Notes: generated by a model from the letters alone, not told the origin. DNA of 20,225 bases from Gammaproteobacteria bacterium (GCA_051008895.1 JBPCXI010000225.1:1-20225), one strand, 5' to 3'; shown: positions 8,471 to 19,896, counted from the stretch's first letter. Translations and numbers: made by a program.

Positions 8471-10273
8471 CTAGAACATAGCTGACGGACCGACTTCGCC
8501 GTCGTCGTCGTCGTCCTCACGACGATTCTTGATGAAATCGCCGGTGATCATCTTGTCGTATGCCATGCCGGGCCCGACCATTGGAAAGACCATGGCGTCG
8601 GGATCGATGATCACCTCGAGAAACGCAGGTCCGTCGAACTCGATGAATTCCTTGACGACCTTTTCCACGTCGTTCTTTTGCTCCAGCCGCACCGCGAAAT
8701 CAAAACCGTCAGCCTGCGCAGCCTTGATGAAGTCTTTGCGATGCAGCGACTTGTCGGTCGCCGAAAAACGGCCTTTGTAATACAGCTTCTGCCACTGTCT
8801 GACCATCCCGTCGCCGTAGTTGTTGAGCACGACGACCTTGACGGGCAGGTCGTAGGTGGTGACCGTCTCGAGTTCGCCGAGATTCATCCGGATGCTCGCA
8901 TCGCCGTCGATATCGATGACCAGCCGGTCCGGACGCGCAAACTGCGCGCCAATCGCCGCTGGCAGGCCGAATCCCATCGTACCCATGCTGCCCGATGTCA
9001 GCCACAGTCGCGGTTCGCGAAAATCGAACCCCTGGGCTGCCCACATCTGGTGCTGGCCGACGCCGGTCGTGATGATTGCGTCGCCCTGCGTATGCTTGTT
9101 CAGTTCCTCAATGACATAGTCGGGCTGGATAAGCGCGCTGTCACGGTCGTAGTTTTGCGCGTACGTCGATTTCAGCGCCGCGATTTCCTCGTGCCAGATC
9201 GGCAGCCGAGTCTTGATATCGTGCCGGTCCCCATACGCGATCAGCGCCTGCAGATCGCGATTCAGGATGCCGACGTGATACCAGTCGACATTCTTGACCT
9301 TGCCGATCTCCGACGGGTCGACGTCGAAATGCGCGAGTCGCTTCGCGCTCGGCGCAAACTTCTCGGGCACTCCCGCGACGCGATCGTCGAAACGCGCGCC
9401 GACAGCGATCAGGAAATCGCAGTCGTCGACCGCGTAGTTCGCAAAAGCAGCGCCGTGCATGCCGAGCATGCGTAACGACAGGTCGCTGGTCGTATCCTGC
9501 GCGCCAATGCCCATCAGCGTCGTCGTAATCGGTATCCCGAAGCGATCCGCAAACGTTCTCAGCGAAGCCGAGGAATCGCTGTTGACGACGCCGCCCCCCG
9601 CATAAATCAGCGGGCGCTCCGAACGTGCCAGCATGTCGAAGAATACCTTTGCCGTGCCGGCGGTCAGAACGTTTTCTTCGACCGCGCGCATGCGCTGGCG
9701 ATAGCCGACGATCGGTAGCAAGCCGGTGCCCTCGAATTCGCCGACCCAGTTCTGCACGTCTTTCGGCACGTCTACGACGACCGGTCCGGGTCTGCCGGTG
9801 CGGGCAATTTCGAACGCGGTACGCACGGTGGCCTCGAGTTTGTGCGGGTCGGTCACGAGGAACACATGTTTCGCGACCGCCGAGCCCATAACCGCTGAAA
9901 TCGGGGCCTCCTGGAATGCGTCCGTGCCGATCGCTGCCGTCGGGACCTGGCCGCAGATCACGACGATCGGTATCGAGTCGGCCATGCAGTCGCGGACCGG
10001 CGTAACGGTATTGGTCGCGCCGGGACCCGACGTCACCATGACGACGCCGACCTCGCCGCTCGCGCGAGCGTATCCGGACGCCATGAAGCCGGCCCCCTGC
10101 TCGTTGGCCGGCACGATCAACGGCATTGGCACGCCGCCGTTGTCGTCGCGGTTGTCGTCGTTGTAACGAAAGACTGCGTCGTAGGTCGGGAGGATCGCGC
10201 CGCCACTGTAGCCGAAAATCGCGTCGACGCCTTCGTCGGCGAGTACCTGTACGATCATTTCCGCGCCGGTCAT
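8471..10273 (-). CDS. ilvI: Acetolactate synthase (acetohydroxy-acid synthase) large catalytic subunit. It is ThDP-dependent and carries an unusual C-terminal poly-Asp tail.
   Basis: ALS-specific motifs are present: FGYSGGAILPTYDAV, GPGATN, RMLGMHG, GVGQHQMWAAQ and SGSMGTMGFGLPAAIGA. The start is chosen at MTGAEMIVQ (10273). The longer ORF allows ATG 10330 or 10501. The C-terminus ...NRREDDDDDGEVGPSAMF is atypical for this family. Confidence 0.85.
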   Translation of the reverse strand: MTGAEMIVQVLADEGVDAIFGYSGGAILPTYDAVFRYNDDNRDDNGGVPMPLIVPANEQGAGFMASGYARASGEVGVVMVTSGPGATNTVTPVRDCMADSIPIVVICGQVPTAAIGTDAFQEAPISAVMGSAVAKHVFLVTDPHKLEATVRTAFEIARTGRPGPVVVDVPKDVQNWVGEFEGTGLLPIVGYRQRMRAVEENVLTAGTAKVFFDMLARSERPLIYAGGGVVNSDSSASLRTFADRFGIPITTTLMGIGAQDTTSDLSLRMLGMHGAAFANYAVDDCDFLIAVGARFDDRVAGVPEKFAPSAKRLAHFDVDPSEIGKVKNVDWYHVGILNRDLQALIAYGDRHDIKTRLPIWHEEIAALKSTYAQNYDRDSALIQPDYVIEELNKHTQGDAIITTGVGQHQMWAAQGFDFREPRLWLTSGSMGTMGFGLPAAIGAQFARPDRLVIDIDGDASIRMNLGELETVTTYDLPVKVVVLNNYGDGMVRQWQKLYYKGRFSATDKSLHRKDFIKAAQADGFDFAVRLEQKNDVEKVVKEFIEFDGPAFLEVIIDPDAMVFPMVGPGMAYDKMITGDFIKNRREDDDDDGEVGPSAMF

Positions 10274-10492
10274 GCGCTTGCCGGCACGCGGGTGTGCGGT
10301 CGTTTCGATTGTCGGTGACGGACTTGCCATAACGTTGGAAGGCGCTTTGTGCGGGTCTATGAGGATCGAGTTGTTGTGTTTTCGCGAGTTTCGAACAAAT
10401 GAGGGTCCATTGCAATAGCAAACATTCTGAGCGAGTATTGCCAATCTTCTAAATCTTAAGGCTTTTTTCGGCACCTCCGGCGAAAACCAGCG

Positions 10493-10993
10493 ATGCGACA
10501 CGTGATTTCCATACTGCTGCAGAACGAAGCCGGCGCGCTCGCGAGGGTCGCGTCGTTGTTCTCGACGCGCGGCTACAACATCGAATCGCTCAGCGTCGCG
10601 CCGACCGAGGACCCGCAGGTCTCGCGATTGACGCTGGTTTCGATCGGGTCCGATCAGGTCATTTCACAGATTACGCAGCAGCTGTTCAAACTCGTCGATG
10701 TCGTAAATATTGCCGATATGACACTTGGCGATCATATAGAGCGCGAGCTGCTGCTGCTCAAGCTGCGCGTAGACACGGAGCACGGCGATAAGGTCCGGGA
10801 CATGGCGCGCGAGCTTAAGGCCCGTGTGCTCGACGACGCTTTGCGGAACTACACCGTGGAAGTCACCGGCAGCAGCGGCCAGCTCGATGAATTCATCGAT
10901 CGCGTCGGCAACTGCGGCGATATCCTGACGGTCGTGCGCTCGGGGCCGCTGTCGCTCGCGCGGGGCCAGCAGGTGTTGAGCGCGACAATCTGA
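10493..10993 (+). CDS. ilvH: Acetolactate synthase small (regulatory, ACT-domain) subunit.
   Basis: 166 aa. The N-terminus MRHVISILLQNEAGALARVASLFSTRGYNIESLSVAPTEDPQVSRLT closely matches the IlvH/IlvN ACT-domain signature. Confidence 0.85.
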   Translation: MRHVISILLQNEAGALARVASLFSTRGYNIESLSVAPTEDPQVSRLTLVSIGSDQVISQITQQLFKLVDVVNIADMTLGDHIERELLLLKLRVDTEHGDKVRDMARELKARVLDDALRNYTVEVTGSSGQLDEFIDRVGNCGDILTVVRSGPLSLARGQQVLSATI

Positions 10994-15077: not shown

Positions 15078-15112
15078 ATTGACAGTGTAAACACACGAGC
15101 GTAAAGTCCGCC
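15078..15112 (+). promoter_or_regulatory. Candidate sigma70-type promoter.
   Basis: TTGACA (15078-15083), a 17-nt spacer, then TAAAGT. It lies 30 nt downstream of the glpD stop and faces the structured region and the tRNA array. Confidence 0.3.
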
Positions 15113-15297
15113 GCCCTATGAAAACTTACCGACAAAATTTGATTCACGATTACGCGCCGACGTGCGCGACGAACGATCGTGAAGTTTTTGATCGCGGCCT
15201 GAATTGGCCTCGCGATCGCGGTCTCGCTCGGCCTGCGGAAAGTGCAGGTGCCGGCGGCGCCACAGGAGATTTGATTAGATAGCCTTGCGAACAATGT

Positions 15298-15329
15298 GTC
15301 GGAAGGCTGTCCGCATGCAGCCTTCCGAC
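15298..15329. repeat. Perfect 12-bp inverted repeat (hairpin) with an 8-nt loop.
   Basis: GTCGGAAGGCTG-tccgcatg-CAGCCTTCCGAC. The repeat is an exact reverse complement. Confidence 0.7.
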
Positions 15330-15340
15330 CAGGGAACGAG

Positions 15341-15377
15341 AAGCCCCGGTTGGCGTATGCAACCGGGGCTTTTTCTT
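15341..15377 (+). terminator. Rho-independent terminator.
   Basis: GC-rich 10-12 bp stem (AAGCCCCGGTTG / CAACCGGGGCTT) with a 7-nt loop, followed by TTTTTCTT. Confidence 0.6.
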
Positions 15378-15533
15378 GCCTGCGAGAAATGGCCCCGGGA
15401 TTCGTCGTTGGGCGAATCTCGTTCTTTAACAATGCGGATTACCTGATAGGGAGGCCATGGGGTCAGACCCCGCCCGTCGACTTGCTGTAGTTCAGCAACC
15501 GAATGGGGTCTGACTCCGAGCCCTCCCGACTTT

Positions 15534-15610
15534 GCCGGCCTGGCTTTAATGGCAAGAAGCGGCTGCCTGGTAAGCAGCAGAAAGAGGTTCGATTCCTCTG
15601 ACCGGCACCA
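15534..15610 (+). tRNA. tRNA-Thr (anticodon GGT).
   Basis: Cloverleaf read by eye. Acceptor GCCGGCC/GACCGGC has one C-A mismatch. D-stem GCTT/AAGC. Anticodon stem GCTGC/GCAGC with loop CTGGTAA. T-arm AGAGG-TTCGATT-CCTCT. CCA is encoded. Confidence 0.75.
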
Positions 15611-15615
15611 CACAT

Positions 15616-15690
15616 GCACTGGTAGCTCAGACGGCAGAGCGCCTGGTTGAAGCCCAGGAAACGGAGTCTCGAAACCTCCCCGGTGCGCCA
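15616..15690 (+). tRNA. tRNA-Phe (anticodon GAA), atypical.
   Basis: Acceptor GCACTGG/CCGGTGC includes a G-U pair. D-arm GCTC-AGACGGCA-GAGC. Anticodon stem CCTGG/CCAGG with loop TTGAAGC, so position 37 is G. T-arm GGAGT-CTCGAAA-CCTCC has U53-C61 and C54, which is non-canonical. CCA is encoded. Confidence 0.55.
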
Positions 15691-15696
15691 GATTAT

Positions 15697-15771
15697 TCCG
15701 GTTTAGCTCAACGGTAGAGCGGCCGCCTGTTAAGCGGCCAGGTGCAGGTTCGAATCCCGCAGCCGGAGCCA
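15697..15771 (+). tRNA. tRNA-Asn (anticodon GTT).
   Basis: Acceptor TCCGGTT/AGCCGGA. D-arm GCTC-AACGGTA-GAGC. Anticodon stem GCCGC/GCGGC with loop CTGTTAA. T-arm GCAGG-TTCGAAT-CCCGC has one A-C mismatch. CCA is encoded. Confidence 0.75.
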
Positions 15772-15777
15772 ATCATC

Positions 15778-15845
15778 GGGGGTGTTTCTGAGAAAGCGAA
15801 CGCCTTGCAAGCGCGTGCAGGCCGGTTTGATTCCGGCCGCCTCCA
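15778..15845 (+). pseudogene. Degenerate tRNA-like element. The acceptor and T-arm are intact, but the D and anticodon arms are aberrant.
   Basis: Acceptor GGGGGTG/CGCCTCC pairs, with two G-U. T-arm GCCGG-TTTGATT-CCGGC is perfect. The intervening 34 nt cannot be folded into canonical D and anticodon arms. The best case is CGC-CTTGCAA-GCG, a UGC (Ala)-like loop on a 3-bp stem. No CCA is encoded. Confidence 0.35.
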
Positions 15846-15948
15846 TTCAATGACGAGCGGCTTTCAGGCTGCACGAAGTCGGCCTGAAAGACCTCCTCGG
15901 AATTAATGCCGGAAAACCACCGGTTTTCTCGGCGCTCAATTTCAATAG

Positions 15949-16024
15949 GCCTCGTTAGCTAAGCGACCAAAGCAGCGGACTGTCCATCCGAAGATCACGA
16001 GTTTGATTCTCGTACGGGGCGCCA
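15949..16024 (+). tRNA. tRNA-Asp (anticodon GTC), atypical.
   Basis: Acceptor GCCTCGT/ACGGGGC with discriminator G73, which is Asp-like. Anticodon loop CTGTCCA puts C at position 37. The D-stem is weak at 3 bp and the D-loop has no GG. T-arm ACGAG-TTTGATT-CTCGT. CCA is encoded. Confidence 0.55.
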
Positions 16025-16030
16025 AACATC

Positions 16031-16107
16031 GAACCGGTGCGCAAATGGTCAAAGCGGCCAGGCTCTCAACCTGGTGATTGTGGGTTCAACTCCCATCCGG
16101 TTTACCA
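16031..16107 (+). tRNA. tRNA-Glu (anticodon CTC).
   Basis: Acceptor GAACCGG/CCGGTTT with G1-U72. Anticodon stem CCAGG/CCTGG with loop CTCTCAA. T-arm GTGGG-TTCAACT-CCCAT. CCA is encoded. Confidence 0.65.
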
Positions 16108-16123
16108 ATTTTCAATAGTCACT

Positions 16124-16201
16124 CAGGGTGTAGCTCAGCCTGGCCAGAGCATGCGGTCCGGAACCGCGAGGCCACTGGTTCGAATCCAGTCGCCCTGACC
16201 A
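16124..16201 (+). tRNA. tRNA-Pro (anticodon CGG), atypical with C33.
   Basis: Acceptor CAGGGTG/CGCCCTG. D-arm GCTC-AGCCTGGCCA-GAGC. Anticodon stem TGCGG/CCGCG with loop TCCGGAA, so position 33 is C rather than the near-universal U. T-arm ACTGG-TTCGAAT-CCAGT. CCA is encoded. Confidence 0.55.
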
Positions 16202-16207
16202 ATCAAT

Positions 16208-16283
16208 GGTGAATGTCGCCTAATGACAGGGCCCCGGGCCGTGAACCCGGAAGATGCGAGTTCGAGTCTCGTCGTTCACCCCA
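16208..16283 (+). tRNA. tRNA-His (anticodon GTG) with G-1 and C73, and an atypical C33.
   Basis: An extra 5' G precedes acceptor GTGAATG/CGTTCAC, and the discriminator is C. Both are His identity elements. Anticodon stem CCGGG/CCCGG with loop CCGTGAA, so position 33 is C. T-arm GCGAG-TTCGAGT-CTCGT. CCA is encoded. Confidence 0.65.
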
Positions 16284-16305
16284 AACAATCAATCCAATCA
16301 ACCAT

Positions 16306-16380
16306 GGATCGTTAGCTCAAACCTAGAGCACCCGGTTCTTACCCGGGACGATGAGGGTTAAAGTCCTTCACGGTCTACCA
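16306..16380 (+). tRNA. tRNA-Lys (anticodon CTT).
   Basis: Acceptor GGATCGT/ACGGTCT with two G-U pairs. D-arm GCTC-AAACCTA-GAGC. Anticodon stem CCCGG/CCGGG with loop TTCTTAC. T-arm GAGGG-TTAAAGT-CCTTC. CCA is encoded. Confidence 0.65.
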
Positions 16381-16393
16381 AATCGAAACCAGC

Positions 16394-16467
16394 TGCCCGA
16401 TCGGTTAGTGGCAAACCGCCGCTCTTACAAAGCGGATCCGACGGTTCGATTCCGTCTCGGGCGACCA
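16394..16467 (+). tRNA. tRNA-Val (anticodon TAC).
   Basis: Acceptor TGCCCGA/TCGGGCG with U1-G72. D-arm GGTT-AGTGGCA-AACC. Anticodon stem CCGCT/AGCGG with loop CTTACAA. T-arm GACGG-TTCGATT-CCGTC. CCA is encoded. Confidence 0.7.
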
Positions 16468-16473
16468 GACAAT

Positions 16474-16550
16474 GCGGCTTTAGCTCAGATGAACAGAGCG
16501 CAACTTTGCGACGGTTGAGGACGAGGGTTTGAGTCCCTCAGGCCGCTCCA
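16474..16550 (+). tRNA. tRNA-Arg (anticodon GCG).
   Basis: Acceptor GCGGCTT/AGGCCGC. D-arm GCTC-AGATGAACA-GAGC. Anticodon stem CAACT/GGTTG with loop TTGCGAC. T-arm GAGGG-TTTGAGT-CCCTC. CCA is encoded. GCG is not the usual bacterial CGN decoder (ACG to ICG). Confidence 0.6.
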
Positions 16551-16554
16551 ATAT

Positions 16555-16628
16555 TGTCCTGTAGCTCAACGGCAGAGCGCCGGCCTGATAAGCCGGTGAC
16601 GTCAGTTCGACTCTGACCTGGACATCCA
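16555..16628 (+). tRNA. tRNA-Ile (anticodon GAT).
   Basis: Acceptor TGTCCTG/CTGGACA has one U-U mismatch. D-arm GCTC-AACGGCA-GAGC. Anticodon stem CCGGC/GCCGG with loop CTGATAA. T-arm GTCAG-TTCGACT-CTGAC. CCA is encoded. Confidence 0.65.
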
Positions 16629-16633
16629 ACCAC

Positions 16634-16711
16634 TGCCGTCTGAAGGGAATTGGCATACCTGCCTGGTTCAGACCCAGGCGTTTCCCGGTTCGAATCCGGG
16701 GACGGCGACCA
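16634..16711 (+). tRNA. tRNA with anticodon CAG (Leu) but class-I architecture (short 5-nt variable arm). The assignment is uncertain.
   Basis: Acceptor TGCCGTC/GACGGCG with U1-G72. The D-stem is 3 bp and the D-loop is long and contains GG. Anticodon stem CCTGG/CCAGG with loop TTCAGAC. The variable region is only CGTTT. T-arm CCCGG-TTCGAAT-CCGGG. CCA is encoded. Bacterial Leu tRNAs normally have a long variable arm. Confidence 0.45.
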
Positions 16712-16862
16712 CTCATTCAGGTAATCCGCGTCGGCATCACGCGTACAGAGCTTGGGCAAGCGACGACGTTCAAAGGCGACGGGCTCCGGGCCCGGCCGGC
16801 GCACTCACGCTACCCATCGCACGGTGTGTACCGAGCGAATCGTGGCACTCAGGCAGCCAACC

Positions 16863-16934
16863 GCTGTTTTAGCTCAGAAGGGTAGAGCGACGAGCATTGT
16901 CTCGTTGTCGAAGGTTCGATTCCTTCATCCAGCA
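16863..16934 (+). pseudogene. Degenerate tRNA-like element (tRNA pseudogene).
   Basis: D-arm GCTC-AGAAGGGTA-GAGC and T-arm GAAGG-TTCGATT-CCTTC are intact. The acceptor GCTGTTT/ATCCAGC has two mismatches. The anticodon region ACGAG-CATTGT-CTCGT has only a 6-nt loop. No CCA is encoded. Confidence 0.35.
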
Positions 16935-16956
16935 CTTCACTGTTAATGAAGCGACT

Positions 16957-16990
16957 TGGTAAGGGTGTAAACCTCGTGGTTCGAATCCAC
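16957..16990 (+). other. tRNA 3'-half remnant. A T-arm is present but no matching 5' acceptor strand.
   Basis: CGTGG-TTCGAAT-CCACC T-arm. No complementary acceptor strand or D-arm can be found upstream. It is followed by about 300 bp of GC-rich spacer. Confidence 0.3.
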
Positions 16991-17329
16991 CCCCGGGCGA
17001 GGGTATCGCCACCTACGCGACGGCCTCCGGCGGCGCCGGATGCATCACCAGGCTCAGGCCGAACGGTGCATCGGGTTAGCCGCAGCACCCGGGGCGCTGA
17101 CGGGACGGACCTGCGGGTCCGCCCGGTCCGGTTTCGCCTGACGAGACCGCGCTGCGGGGCTTTCGAGCACCGTCGCGTCGTCGGTCCGGCCAAGCCGAAT
17201 CCGGTAGCCCGGAACCGTCTGTTTCCGCTACGGATGTGGAGGTCGTCGCACCAATTTTCATGCGTGATGCCGAAATGTTTTTTGGCGCTGCTCACAGGGA
17301 GTGGCGCGGTTTATAGAGGAGATAGAAAA

Positions 17330-18472
17330 ATGTTTTTCATTCGTAAGTTCATCGTGCGCAAGCACGAGCGTGGCCTGCTGTTCAAGCAGGGAGACTTCGT
17401 CCGCTTCCTGGAGCCGGGCGTACTCCGCCTGTTCGATCCGCTGCGTCGAGTGGACGTCGAGCTGCACAACATCGCGCAGCCGGAGTTCGAGCACGGTCTG
17501 GCTGACTTCTTCGTGAAGCAGTTCCCGGCAGACGTCGAGCGCCTGTTCGAGAAGGTCGAGACCCGTGACCACGAGGTCGCGGTGATCTTCAAGAACGGTC
17601 ACTTCGCTGACATCGTCGGTCCGGACCAGCGCAAGCTGTTCTGGAAGGGCATCGTGGACGTGACCGCGCAGGTGGTCGACATCGGCGAGACCTTCGAGGT
17701 CGAGCCGCGCGTCGCGAAGGCTCTGGTCACCGACCTGAAGGGCAAGCGCATCGCGTTGGCGACTAACGCGATCGTCGCCCGCGAGGTGCCGGACGGCCAC
17801 GTTGGCCTGCTGTTCGTGGACGGTGAGCTGATTCGCGAGCTGGCGCCGGGCCTGCACGTGTTCTGGAAGTTCAACCGCGGCATCGCCGTGGAGCTGGTCG
17901 ACCAGCGCGTGCGCGCGCTGGAGGTCGGTGGTCAGGAGATCCTGACCAAGGACAAGGTCGCGCTCCGCGTGAACCTGACCGCGAACTTCCAGTTCACCGA
18001 TGCGCTGAAGGCGACCCAGGTCGCCAAGGACCCGCTGGATTTCCTGTACAAGGAGCTGCAGTTCGGTCTGCGCGCGTCGGTCGGTACCCGCACTCTGGAT
18101 GCGCTACTGGAGGACAAGGGTGCTGTCGACCACGAGGTCTTCGAGCAGGTTCACGACAAGTTCGCGGACATTGGCATCGAGGTGCGCGGCATCGGTGTCA
18201 AGGACATCATCCTCCCGGGTGACATGAAGGAGATCCTGGGCAAGGTGGTGGAGGCGGAGAAGGTGGCTCAGGCCAACGTGATCCGTCGTCGCGAGGAGAC
18301 CAATGCGACCCGTTCGCTGCTGAACACTGCGAAGGTCATGGAGGACAACCCGACCGCGCTGCGTCTGAAGGAGCTGGAGACCCTGGAGAAGGTCACCGAA
18401 AAGGTGGGCAACATCTCGGTCATCGGCGGCCTGGACGGTGTTCGGGACCAGCTGGTTCGCATCAAGCGCTAG
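17330..18472 (+). CDS. SPFH/band-7 (stomatin/prohibitin/flotillin/HflK-C) domain protein.
   Basis: ATG 17330 with a strong Shine-Dalgarno (GAGGAG, 8 nt upstream). The upstream extension of the long ORF (from 16946) is GC-rich non-coding-like sequence. The central and C-terminal regions (VKDIILPGDMKEILGKVVEAEKVAQANVIRRREE..) are SPFH-like with a coiled-coil tail. Confidence 0.75.
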   Translation: MFFIRKFIVRKHERGLLFKQGDFVRFLEPGVLRLFDPLRRVDVELHNIAQPEFEHGLADFFVKQFPADVERLFEKVETRDHEVAVIFKNGHFADIVGPDQRKLFWKGIVDVTAQVVDIGETFEVEPRVAKALVTDLKGKRIALATNAIVAREVPDGHVGLLFVDGELIRELAPGLHVFWKFNRGIAVELVDQRVRALEVGGQEILTKDKVALRVNLTANFQFTDALKATQVAKDPLDFLYKELQFGLRASVGTRTLDALLEDKGAVDHEVFEQVHDKFADIGIEVRGIGVKDIILPGDMKEILGKVVEAEKVAQANVIRRREETNATRSLLNTAKVMEDNPTALRLKELETLEKVTEKVGNISVIGGLDGVRDQLVRIKR

Positions 18473-18516: not shown

Positions 18517-19896
18517 TTAGTCCCGGTTCAGCGCGCTGATCAGCGGCTGCAGATGTTCTGCGTAATTTTTCCAGCGGCCGATCGACTTGGTGTGCATCGG
18601 CTTTCGAATTTGCGCGCGACTGATATTGAGTACCTCGCGCTTCGTCTCGTAAAAGGATAAACAGGCCGGATCGAAATTCAGGCCGCAATGGTCCAACAGG
18701 TCGCGAATGCGTTCCTCCGGCTCAGTCACAAGTTCTTCATAGTGGCTGACGAAAATCCTGCCCGGCATCAGTTCTTGCCAGTAGCTCATCAGGTCTTGCA
18801 TGTAGCGGGTAATCTCGCCGATCTGTGCGAGGTCGTAGCAGTAGGCCTGGTTGTGTGGAAGGTCTTTCTGGAAATATGAAAGTCCCTGGTCTCGAGGGTC
18901 GCGTTTGCAGTAAATGATCTTTGCGTTGGGCAGCATCACCGCGATCAGTGGTGCATAGAAAAAATTGTAGTTCATCTTGTCGGTGAAAAAGGCCGTGTCT
19001 GCCGAGAGCGACTTCAGGCCTTCGATATAGCGAATCGCGGCATCTTTGAACAACTGCGGATCCACCTTATTGAACCCCTGCGGAAAAGGGCTGCCTGTCT
19101 TCAAGCTGATTTCGTTAATCAGCTCGTTCAGCTGCATCGTTTCACCCGCGCCATAGACCTGTGGGTGGCTACACAGGATTTGCTCCCGCAGCGTCGAACC
19201 TGTTCGCATCATTCCTGTAATGAAAATCGGGCTTTCATCCGGGATTCCGATGTCTTGATAACGAGCGAGAAAATCTTCGTCGAATACCTTCCTGAAATAT
19301 TGAAACCATTCCGCGCGGCCGGCATTAGTCCAGTTCGCTTGGACTGCCCCTATGCGGTTCGCCTCTCTGAAGTATTCGAACGCAGTGTCGTATTGTTGTA
19401 GATCATCAAAAACTTTCCCCAACGCAAAGCCCAGTTTCATTTTTGTCTGGCTGTTCGCGGAAGATTGAGCGTAAATTTCCTGCATCGCGCGAACATCATC
19501 CGTTATCTCGTCATACTGAGTGATAATCGCGATATCGTCGTACAGGTAAGCGTTGCGCGAATCGATGGCAATCGCCGCCCTGAACGCCGCGCATGCATCA
19601 TCGAACTCGTTGTTGTCTCGCAAAAGTTTGCCAAGTTGAATATGCAGTTGGGCCGAATCAGGGTCGGCACGAATGGCGTTTTCGAGCAACCGGCGGAGCT
19701 CGTCGAACGCCAGCGGCTGATCGTCAATTTCGCCCAGTGCGATCAAGGCGGAGACATTGTCGCTATCGACCGCGAGCACCTGCGTATAGATCGCCTTGGC
19801 CTCTTCCAGTTTGCCGGACTGGTGCAGTTGCCGTGCGATTTTCAGCTTGATATCCAGCACAAGATTCCGCCTTCTGCGGTGAAATGATCTATTCAC
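18517..19896 (-). CDS. TPR-repeat protein fused to a C-terminal sulfotransferase domain.
   Basis: The N-terminal half has TPR-like repeats (AKAIYTQVLAVDSDNVSALIALG...). The C-terminal half has the sulfotransferase 5'-PSB-like motif PIFITGMMRTGSTL and the 3'-PB-like motif YCKRDPRDQGLSY. The start is uncertain. The longest ORF begins with GTG at 19896. An internal GTG near 19860 has a better AAGG Shine-Dalgarno. The region is AT-rich compared with its surroundings. Confidence 0.7.
   Translation of the reverse strand: MNRSFHRRRRNLVLDIKLKIARQLHQSGKLEEAKAIYTQVLAVDSDNVSALIALGEIDDQPLAFDELRRLLENAIRADPDSAQLHIQLGKLLRDNNEFDDACAAFRAAIAIDSRNAYLYDDIAIITQYDEITDDVRAMQEIYAQSSANSQTKMKLGFALGKVFDDLQQYDTAFEYFREANRIGAVQANWTNAGRAEWFQYFRKVFDEDFLARYQDIGIPDESPIFITGMMRTGSTLREQILCSHPQVYGAGETMQLNELINEISLKTGSPFPQGFNKVDPQLFKDAAIRYIEGLKSLSADTAFFTDKMNYNFFYAPLIAVMLPNAKIIYCKRDPRDQGLSYFQKDLPHNQAYCYDLAQIGEITRYMQDLMSYWQELMPGRIFVSHYEELVTEPEERIRDLLDHCGLNFDPACLSFYETKREVLNISRAQIRKPMHTKSIGRWKNYAEHLQPLISALNRD

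Follow-up and report, generated by a model that had tools for sequence, protein, structure and literature searches.

The tRNA gene arrays known as L-arrays are horizontally spread and supernumerary, are induced by translation inhibitors, and have HNH endonuclease and rtcB genes adjoining them or co-regulated with them (PMC8421152). They are beneficial under translational stress, and that of Anabaena aids survival of translation inhibitors (PMC8421152). Four loci of Anabaena 7120 are de-repressed in a trcR mutant, namely the L-array of 26 genes, the HNH gene all8564, the slipin gene alr0740 and rtcB (PMC10272220), and all four are also induced by chloramphenicol; slipin is not mentioned in the main text of the L-array paper (PMC8421152). 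The present report concerns a dense array of tRNA genes, followed on the same strand by a conserved non-coding block and a slipin gene, in a contig of 20,225 nt from the metagenome-assembled genome (MAG) of a gammaproteobacterium (GCA_051008895.1, JBPCXI010000225.1:1-20225). The whole of this contig is referred to as the window, and the array span under study is 15534-16990. An earlier note on this DNA had stopped at the latter position; its span covered the array and left out the slipin gene linked to it, the feature that tells most about the locus.

The array resembles the L-array of Anabaena sp. PCC 7120 (the trn operon) in that its genes lie on one strand, are tightly spaced and non-periodic, and represent many isotypes. 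Like L-arrays it is sporadic, being missing from close relatives at the same site, and HNH and rtcB genes are found near related loci. It differs from them in having 12 intact genes, as against 23-43, and in its host, a gammaproteobacterial MAG. As in Anabaena, where alr0740 belongs to the stress regulon of the array, a slipin is tied to the tRNA genes. Unlike in Anabaena, where alr0740 is found elsewhere on the chromosome, the slipin gene and its tRNA-like RNAs here form one physical piece with the array, joined to its 3' end or lying within it, and at the window array no repeats of the TrcR type were identified. The physical fusion of array and slipin matches the co-regulation of array, HNH, rtcB and slipin in Anabaena.

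A second precedent is the association of a Band-7 gene and a so-called b7a-tRNA ("band-7-associated tRNA") with RtcB, in which the pair would be a scaffold for RNA repair of the RtcB type, an in silico prediction of Burroughs and Aravind (2016) quoted in bioRxiv 10.1101/312249, where the Band-7/b7a-tRNA pair is cited as a proposed RNA ligation cofactor. As in that module, a tRNA-like gene stands immediately before the Band-7 gene, and RtcB, RtcR and RtcA adjoin in related loci. Unlike it, the window is without RtcB, RtcR and RtcA (RtcB occurs in 20 of 84 related loci), and the module is joined to a decoding tRNA array, an extra RNA of 150 nt and a second unit resembling a T arm.

The tRNA array unit of Tran et al. 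(2016), as quoted in PMC5966550, is defined by at least 20 tRNA genes at no fewer than 2 tRNA genes per kb. The array described here has a density of about 9 per kb (13 Rfam-positive units in 1.4 kb) but falls short of 20 genes, with 12 intact ones, or 14 if the tRNA-like units are included. With the array units of Mycobacterium, mycobacteriophages, an Acidithiobacillus integrative and conjugative element (ICE) and plasmids it shares high density, approximately one gene per isotype, non-canonical members, HNH as the commonest associated coding sequence, and inferred horizontal transfer (PMC5966550). It differs from them in having no plasmid, phage or ICE backbone, the similarity being at the level of single tRNAs only. 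The classic array of an Acidiphilium plasmid, flanked by insertion sequence (IS) elements and HNH genes, was considered as a relative and rejected, since it is not homologous beyond the tRNA level. A more distant parallel is offered by Ro60 (Rsr) and its YrlA-type Y RNA in rtcBA operons, where a scaffold protein and a tRNA-mimicking RNA likewise stand beside RNA-repair genes and the D/T elbow is likewise the conserved part of the mimic. The protein here is, in distinction, an SPFH and not a TROVE protein, and its RNA has no Y RNA stem and no Rfam Y RNA match.

We propose that the locus probably represents an accessory tRNA operon of the L-array type combined with a Band-7/b7a-tRNA RNA-repair module, the two forming a stress-inducible unit for tRNA backup and repair. 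Each half has already been described; the fusion and the 150-nt RNA appear not to have been. In the literature searched, which did not extend to the original paper of Burroughs and Aravind (2016), no description of the fusion of an array with slipin and a tRNA-like RNA was found, nor, in the same literature, of the conserved 150-nt RNA or of the high frequency of C33 reported below.

Linkage of the array to a slipin gene

The comparison set consists of 84 slipin loci including the window (slipin identity 50-100%; 512.7 kb in total), of which 80 were obtained from Joint Genome Institute metagenomes by a slipin alignment scan (slipin identity 50-83%). Of the 422 tRNAs that ARAGORN calls across these loci, 421 share the strand of slipin. 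In 59 of the 62 loci that have enough sequence, a tRNA or tRNA-like element is located within 650 nt upstream of the slipin start, with a median gap of 369 nt. Among the 37 loci with at least 2 kb upstream, 25 have five or more upstream tRNAs (maximum 20) and 10 have only one or two. Immediately downstream of slipin, tRNAs occur in 15 of 64 loci, beginning in 12 with Arg(GCG); in those 15 the slipin gene lies inside the array. The overall density, 0.8 tRNA per kb, is approximately 50 times that typical of a bacterial genome. That array and slipin module are fused on the same strand across very diverged bacteria argues that they act in one pathway.

To identify neighbouring genes all open reading frames (ORFs) of the 84 loci were clustered, and recurrent clusters were confirmed by Pfam. 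The recurrent neighbours are RtcB (20 loci, mostly just downstream of slipin), an HNH endonuclease of 190-250 amino acids (18 loci), RtcR (6 loci, divergent upstream) and RtcA (5 loci); integrase, transposase or phage genes formed no recurrent cluster among the 84 loci. In the closest long relative, locus L021 (slipin 79% identical), the order is slipin-HNH-RtcB, while in cultured Burkholderia cenocepacia it is rtcR (- strand), tRNA-like gene, slipin and RtcB.

The array HNH proteins (L021 3996-4736 and 17 other loci) match the IscB and Cas9d models of NCBIfam weakly and over the HNH motif only, which recalls the "Cas9-annotated endonuclease" of some mycobacterial tRNA arrays (PMC5966550). A variant arrangement is seen in Citrobacter freundii (L103; NZ_CP151862.1, 4547-6913), which has rtcR on the - strand, a gap of 449 nt, slipin and a protein with a nucleotidyltransferase domain; neither ARAGORN nor Rfam finds a tRNA-like RNA in the gap. 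Either its RNA partner is too diverged to be detected or this is a variant without an RNA partner. The rtcR-slipin locus of C. freundii has no near match in the RefSeq genomes of E. coli.

The tRNA genes

Genes were called with ARAGORN and the Rfam model RF00005 (gathering cut-off 29 bits) at default and, over 15300-17300, laxer filters. ARAGORN made 12 calls on the + strand between 15534 and 16935; RF00005 made 12 at default filters and 13 above the gathering score at laxer ones, these 13 units scoring 39.1-66.5 bits (E 1e-6 to 1e-13). Together the two reveal 12 intact tRNA genes of 12 isotypes between 15534 and 16711, all on the + strand. The dense + strand array seen in the earlier note is thereby upheld, with 12 intact members instead of 13. 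Its list of anticodons agrees exactly with what was found (in order GGT, GAA, GTT, GTC, CTC, CGG, GTG, CTT, TAC, GCG, GAT and CAG), and where it had almost all members encoding CCA, all 12 intact genes do so. The gaps between genes measure 4-22 nt, with the exception of one of 103 nt and one of 151 nt. The composition is non-periodic, there being 12 different isotypes and direct-repeat families confined to the shared T and D arms. Because the calls of two programs, the encoded CCA, the spacing and the fold of an internal spacer (z -5.6) concur, the array is real and far beyond chance.

Unless otherwise stated both programs call each gene, and scores are those of RF00005. The array opens with tRNA-Thr(GGT) (15534-15610; 52.1 bits), which has a C6.A67 mismatch. 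The tRNA-Phe(GAA) gene (15616-15690; 53.2 bits) is found by RF00005 only and missed by ARAGORN; its minimum free energy (MFE) fold is a cloverleaf, it has an atypical T arm, GGAG-UCUCGAAAC-CUCC, and G73, and it is conserved in L021. After tRNA-Asn(GTT) (15697-15771; 64.1 bits) come tRNA-Asp(GTC) (15949-16024; 52.6 bits), with the T loop UUUGAUU and C37, and tRNA-Glu(CTC) (16031-16107; 59.7 bits). Both tRNA-Pro(CGG) (16124-16201; 56.5 bits) and tRNA-His(GTG) (16208-16283, or 16209-16283 by ARAGORN; 52.3 bits) carry C33 instead of the near-universal U33. In the latter an encoded G-1 (16208, read from the sequence) faces C73. There follow tRNA-Lys(CTT) (16306-16380; 53.1 bits), with the T loop UUAAAGU; tRNA-Val(TAC) (16394-16467; 57.5 bits); tRNA-Arg(GCG) (16474-16550; 57.5 bits), in which GCG replaces the usual bacterial ACG; tRNA-Ile(GAT) (16555-16628; 66.5 bits), with a U6.U67 mismatch and U73; and tRNA-Leu(CAG) (16634-16711; 39.1 bits, at laxer filters only), with A73.

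The tRNA-Leu gene is 78 nt long and has a short variable region like that of class I tRNAs, without a long arm. This is the rule in these arrays, in which 23 of 27 Leu(CAG) genes measure 77-80 nt as against 87 nt for E. coli leuT. Likewise the Arg anticodon across slipin-linked arrays is GCG in 21 cases and ACG in 4. Among the identity elements retained are C1-G72 and A73 in Pro, G73 in Asn and Asp, A73 in Lys, Val and Leu, and G1-C72 and C2-G71 in Thr. Ten of the 12 anticodons are Watson-Crick cognates of the top codon of their amino acid in the genes of the window; the earlier observation that the anticodons match GC-rich codon usage is thus borne out, but they are not "rarer" in terms of demand. 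In the same search the array tRNAs score 39-66 bits and the class I tRNAs of E. coli 62-79 bits.

U33 is absent from 62 of 399 tRNAs of slipin-linked arrays (15.5%), 53 of which have C. As controls, E. coli tRNAs and the Acidiphilium plasmid array were put through the same pipeline, where U33 was absent from 0 of 22 and 1 of 26 tRNAs, respectively. The loops without U33 may serve to evade anticodon nucleases or belong to tRNAs with non-decoding roles. They cluster in His-GTG (12 of 25), Gly-GCC (10 of 14) and Pro-CGG (5 of 10).

The order in L021 is collinear with that in the window (Thr-Phe-Asn-Ala-like-spacer-Asp-Glu-Pro-His-Lys-Val-Arg-[Gln-Trp]-Ile-Leu), the alignment of the two showing in the window a clean deletion of Gln(CTG) and Trp(CCA), which follow Arg in relatives. 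With indels, the array is also collinear in L017, L019 and L066. Between the window and L021 the identity is 89% for intact tRNAs of the same length and 82% for the slipin genes at the nucleotide level; C33 in Pro(CGG) and His(GTG) and the T loop of Phe are among the odd features shared. In pairs of the window and a relative 46 stem changes keep the base pair (20 double compensatory, 26 single pair-preserving) and 29 break it. The set as a whole is clearly maintained, although every member need not be functional.

The conserved non-coding block

Approximately 620 nt between tRNA-Leu(CAG) and the start codon of slipin are conserved in all close relatives, and its parts were searched for with nhmmer profiles built from the alignment of these relatives. 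No terminator-like site was found on the + strand between the array and slipin. Array, non-coding block and slipin are probably one composite, co-transcribed unit, the co-transcription being suggested by this arrangement. A long ORF from 16946 was rejected as an artefact; the real gene here is slipin at 17330-18472.

The block begins with a conserved structured RNA of about 150 nt (16712-16862, + strand; 34 loci by nhmmer), which in all 34 comes after the last true tRNA and before the tRNA-like element next to slipin. From an alignment of 30 sequences (A3) a three-way consensus fold emerges, in which 10 of the 19 pairs have compensatory changes. There is no Rfam match at E<=1, and the segment 16712-17030 folded singly gives no signal (z +0.49), the structure being visible only comparatively. 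A second copy of the 150-nt element is found in L057 (2306-2490), where it follows Arg-Gln-Leu downstream of slipin and precedes a tRNA-Ile(GAT)-like gene. From this second copy it follows that the pair of 150-nt RNA and tRNA-like gene can be duplicated.

The slipin-proximal tRNA-like RNA (b7a-tRNA-like; 16863-16935, + strand) scores 47.6 bits with RF00005 and is reported by ARAGORN as "tRNA-???". It has a cloverleaf, a 6-nt "anticodon" loop and no CCA, and lies 395 nt upstream of slipin. A profile of this unit detected it in 63 loci. In the family CCA is absent from 49 of 57 members, 13 of 57 have loops of 6 or 8 nt, and 29 different "anticodons" occur, whereas the other array tRNAs encode CCA in 340 of 364 cases and have 7-nt loops in 355 of 364. 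In an alignment of 44 sequences, including that of B. cenocepacia, the D stem is invariant (44/44) and the T loop nearly so, compensatory changes are found in 16 of the 20 cloverleaf pairs, and the "anticodon" loop is hypervariable. The proximal element is therefore a class distinct from the array tRNAs. It matches the predicted b7a-tRNA, being CCA-less, with a hypervariable loop and an invariant D/T elbow. Such a conserved elbow beside a non-decoding loop would befit a protein-binding mimic of tRNA. This element and that at 15778-15845 are the two degenerate units of the earlier note; both exist, the latter as a decayed Ala(UGC)-like gene and the former as a member of the slipin-associated class, not as an array tRNA.

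Next to it (16936-17010, + strand; 21 loci by nhmmer) lies a hairpin CUUCA...UGAAG, a module resembling a T arm, GUGGUUCGAAUCCAC, and a second hairpin GGCGA...UCGCC. This segment is conserved with covarying hairpins in L015-L021 and L066. In more distant loci its place is taken by two tandem tRNA-like units that ARAGORN can call, and the segment is probably a degenerate second tRNA-like unit. The terminal 3'-half fragment that had been suspected of being an att site or remnant of integration belongs here; no second copy is present in the window, and it forms part of the conserved slipin leader in 21 loci. Both it and the proximal tRNA-like unit look functional and unlike scars of integration. 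The block is completed by a conserved non-coding leader (17011-17329, + strand; 13 loci by nhmmer), which ends in AGGAGA, the ribosome binding site of slipin. In the nine close loci in which this leader was aligned, indels are not multiples of three.

The slipin protein

The slipin gene (17330-18472, + strand) specifies a 380-amino acid member of the slipin family (SPFH/Band-7; Pfam Band_7, E 3e-26) identical to an NCBI protein, named "slipin family protein", from a MAG. No transmembrane segment is present, the maximum Kyte-Doolittle value over a 19-residue window being 0.98. In the AlphaFold 2 model (pLDDT 72.5) a beta domain at the N terminus and an SPFH domain precede a long C-terminal helix. 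Foldseek aligned it to stomatin, HflK/C and prohibitin over approximately 250 columns, and to the major vault protein over its whole length (427-447 columns, E ~1e-10). Since the matched proteins all build large ring or cage assemblies, oligomerisation of the modelled protein is a reasonable inference. PADLOC gave no defence-system match for slipin, the downstream sulfotransferase or a small ORF upstream of the array.

Genomic context of the array

The genes upstream of the array are, in order, those for an FGE-sulfatase/PEGA protein, ExbB, an FHA protein and pterin dehydratase, followed by ilvB (- strand), ilvN, proB, proA and glpD. Nine related contigs share ilvN-proB-proA-glpD, and several share the whole block from ExbB to glpD, with glpD 55-78% identical. 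None of the nine has tRNAs downstream of glpD, and their downstream genes differ. The array is thus not a conserved core feature of this neighbourhood, a possibility that the earlier note had kept in mind. In L012, the closest relative by glpD (94% at the amino acid level), the contig ends inside the hairpin just 5' of the array. Slipin homologues 79-95% identical to that of the window lie directly downstream of homologous arrays in flanks unrelated to those of the window. The view of the array as accessory, with non-canonical members and unlike a core rRNA/tRNA operon, accordingly holds good, since it is absent from this site in relatives and recurs in other contexts.

Proposed function and alternative explanations

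The proposal of a tRNA backup-and-repair unit starts from the genes, the RNA structures with their conservation and covariation, the linkage over 84 loci and the absence of the array from this site in relatives, all of which are observed. Array, non-coding block and the gene of a soluble slipin would be read as one transcript, with no terminator between them. By analogy with Anabaena, whose L-array stays silent until translation is impaired, we infer that the unit is inducible and would respond to RNA damage or to stress on translation. From the precursor, spare tRNAs would then be released by RNase P and 3' processing enzymes; these tRNAs may refill the cell's pool or draw toxin RNases away as decoys, while the slipin oligomer and the tRNA-like RNA would assist the repair of cleaved tRNAs by RtcB encoded elsewhere in the genome. 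The scheme supposes that the array tRNAs would be aminoacylated, that slipin would bind the tRNA-like RNA and that the two would cooperate with RtcB. Two separate lines are joined in this way: accessory tRNA arrays and the computationally predicted repair system of Band-7, tRNA-like RNA and RtcB. If confirmed, it would explain the purpose of L-arrays and, for the first time, assign a function to a cytosolic bacterial SPFH protein. The CCA-less tRNA mimic, the unannotated 150-nt RNA, the soluble vault-like SPFH protein and the tRNAs with conserved C33 are objects that can be tested.

Several facts weigh against this proposal. A Pfam scan found no RtcB, HNH or RtcR in the window. Site search and inspection gave no convincing sigma-70 or sigma-54 promoter immediately 5' of tRNA-Thr, and between the sole sigma-70-like site (15079-15107) and the array stand a small ORF and two terminator-like hairpins. 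By the account in bioRxiv 10.1101/312249, neither b7a-tRNA nor the binding of RNA by slipin has ever had experimental validation. The array also includes members that seem impaired: decay has affected the Ala-like unit, the Gln and Trp genes have been deleted, the acceptor stems of Thr and Ile contain mismatches, and position 73 is not A in Phe or Ile. With 29 pair-breaking as against 46 pair-keeping changes, selection on each individual tRNA is not claimed.

The same defects are what one might expect of a functionless, decaying relic of an acquired L-array in which selection acts only on slipin and the tRNA-like RNA. To the loss of CCA from the Ala-like gene in the window, the deletion of Gln and Trp, the acceptor mismatches and the broken stem pairs may be added that L-arrays of Acidithiobacillus and Anabaena are poorly expressed in standard conditions (PMC8421152), and that the array is dispensable for the slipin module, given the 10 of 37 slipin loci with only one or two upstream tRNAs. 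Yet the 12 genes keep their cloverleaf, CCA and isotype order across slipin divergence down to approximately 50% identity, conservation is higher in the tRNA bodies than in the linked protein gene or the spacers, 20 stem changes are double and compensatory, and such odd features as C33 and the Phe T loop are conserved and not random; we regard a mere relic as improbable, though individual genes may be partly decaying relics. Retention of CCA by all 12 genes and of most known identity elements would suit a housekeeping operon holding the main or only copies of these isoacceptors, to which slipin is adjacent by chance, and so would the decoding of the host's top codon by 10 of the 12 and the chromosomal contexts, which include contigs of 0.25-1.4 Mb. 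This is nevertheless very unlikely. The array is missing from relatives that share the upstream synteny, no rRNA was found in the window by Rfam, and the content of the array differs by indels between close relatives. Its RF00005 scores fall below those of E. coli class I tRNAs (39-66 as against 62-79 bits), Pro and His have C33, with U33 lacking from 15.5% of 399 tRNAs as against none of 22 in E. coli, T loops are atypical, Leu has no long variable arm and Arg is GCG. Moreover, the set has no Met, Gly, Ser, Cys, Tyr, Gln or Trp isotype and so cannot support translation by itself.

That the array is absent after glpD where the upstream synteny is shared, and that the array-slipin unit recurs in unrelated flanks, also accord with cargo of a phage, ICE or genomic island, the terminal fragment being the scar of an att site, as the earlier note had it. 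So do the dip in G+C content to 57% across the array and to 51-53% in the sulfotransferase gene downstream (60-66% elsewhere in the window), the recurrence of HNH endonucleases in related loci, and the IS elements, HNH and GIY-YIG genes carried by classic plasmid arrays such as that of Acidiphilium. However, Pfam revealed no integrase, transposase, recombinase or phage structural gene in the window or in the flanks of L066, and no mobile-gene cluster recurs in the 84 loci. The search of 2.9 million viral contigs was nearly negative, giving one distant slipin homologue without tRNAs, and those of phage and plasmid DNA gave single-tRNA-level similarity only. The fragment itself is unrepeated in the window, and in 21 loci it is kept in register with the leader of slipin. 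An origin as such cargo is quite improbable, though horizontal spread of the array is likely, possibly helped by the HNH endonuclease.

A bolder version of the backup-and-repair proposal, which we advance tentatively and consider somewhat unlikely, draws on the resemblance to the major vault protein and the lack of a membrane anchor. Array and slipin module would be one dedicated system resembling an organelle, in which a soluble SPFH cage would be loaded through the tRNA-elbow mimic and the 150-nt RNA and co-expressed, on a single transcript, with toxin-evasive tRNAs, thereby sustaining translation. The array would then be a minimal toxin-evasive set, with C33 loops, G34 or C34 anticodons that have no need of wobble modification, and Arg-GCG in place of the inosine-dependent ACG, and translation could continue while anticodon nucleases or ribosome-targeting antibiotics act. 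If true, bacteria would here possess an equivalent of the vault/vault-RNA particle, linked to the backup and repair of tRNAs.

Other features of the array and its flanks

The Ala(UGC)-like unit (15778-15845, + strand), which is without CCA, scores 27.6 bits with RF00005, below the gathering cut-off. From the sequence it has a 7-bp acceptor stem with G3.U70, A73, the loop CUUGCAA and an intact T arm, together with a degenerate D arm. It is conserved in L021 and L066, the L021 orthologue scoring 29.7 bits and still possessing CCA. In L038, L039, L050 and L055 the same slot between Asn and Asp is occupied by Ala(TGC). It is followed by the structured spacer of 100 nt (15849-15948, + strand), noticed previously and confirmed here, which forms two strong hairpins (MFE -42.4 kcal/mol, z -5.6; equalled in stability by 0 of 200 shuffles) and is approximately 90% conserved in L021, L066 and L017. 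The second of these hairpins (window 15882-15933) is tandemly duplicated in L066 (3744-3903) and thus behaves as a small repeat unit.

Directly 5' of tRNA-Thr lies a long imperfect hairpin with 23-nt arms (15449-15527, + strand; inverted repeat I2, 83% complementary), the first arm of which is conserved in L012 and the second partly in L021. To judge from its position and sequence it is possibly a leader or processing element of the array transcript. The gap between glpD and the array also contains the sigma-70-like promoter (TTGACA-17-TAAAGT; 15079-15107), an ORF of 54 codons (15118-15282) and two terminator-like hairpins (15330-15382 and 15396-15421), all of which are conserved in L012. The L012 copy of the ORF differs by an in-frame indel of 15 nt, which suggests a real small protein or leader peptide. 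ORF and hairpins could constitute an attenuator-type control of read-through into the array.

On the other side a TPR-sulfotransferase gene (18517-19896, - strand) is convergent with slipin, and the contig ends at 20225. In all related loci this gene is absent next to slipin and, given also its low G+C content, it may be a separate recent acquisition. Lastly, the ilvB-like gene (- strand) is divergent from the ilvN-like gene (+ strand), with an overlap of 9 nt (8471-10993), which is not the usual ilvBN operon; this divergent arrangement is kept in all related MAG contigs.

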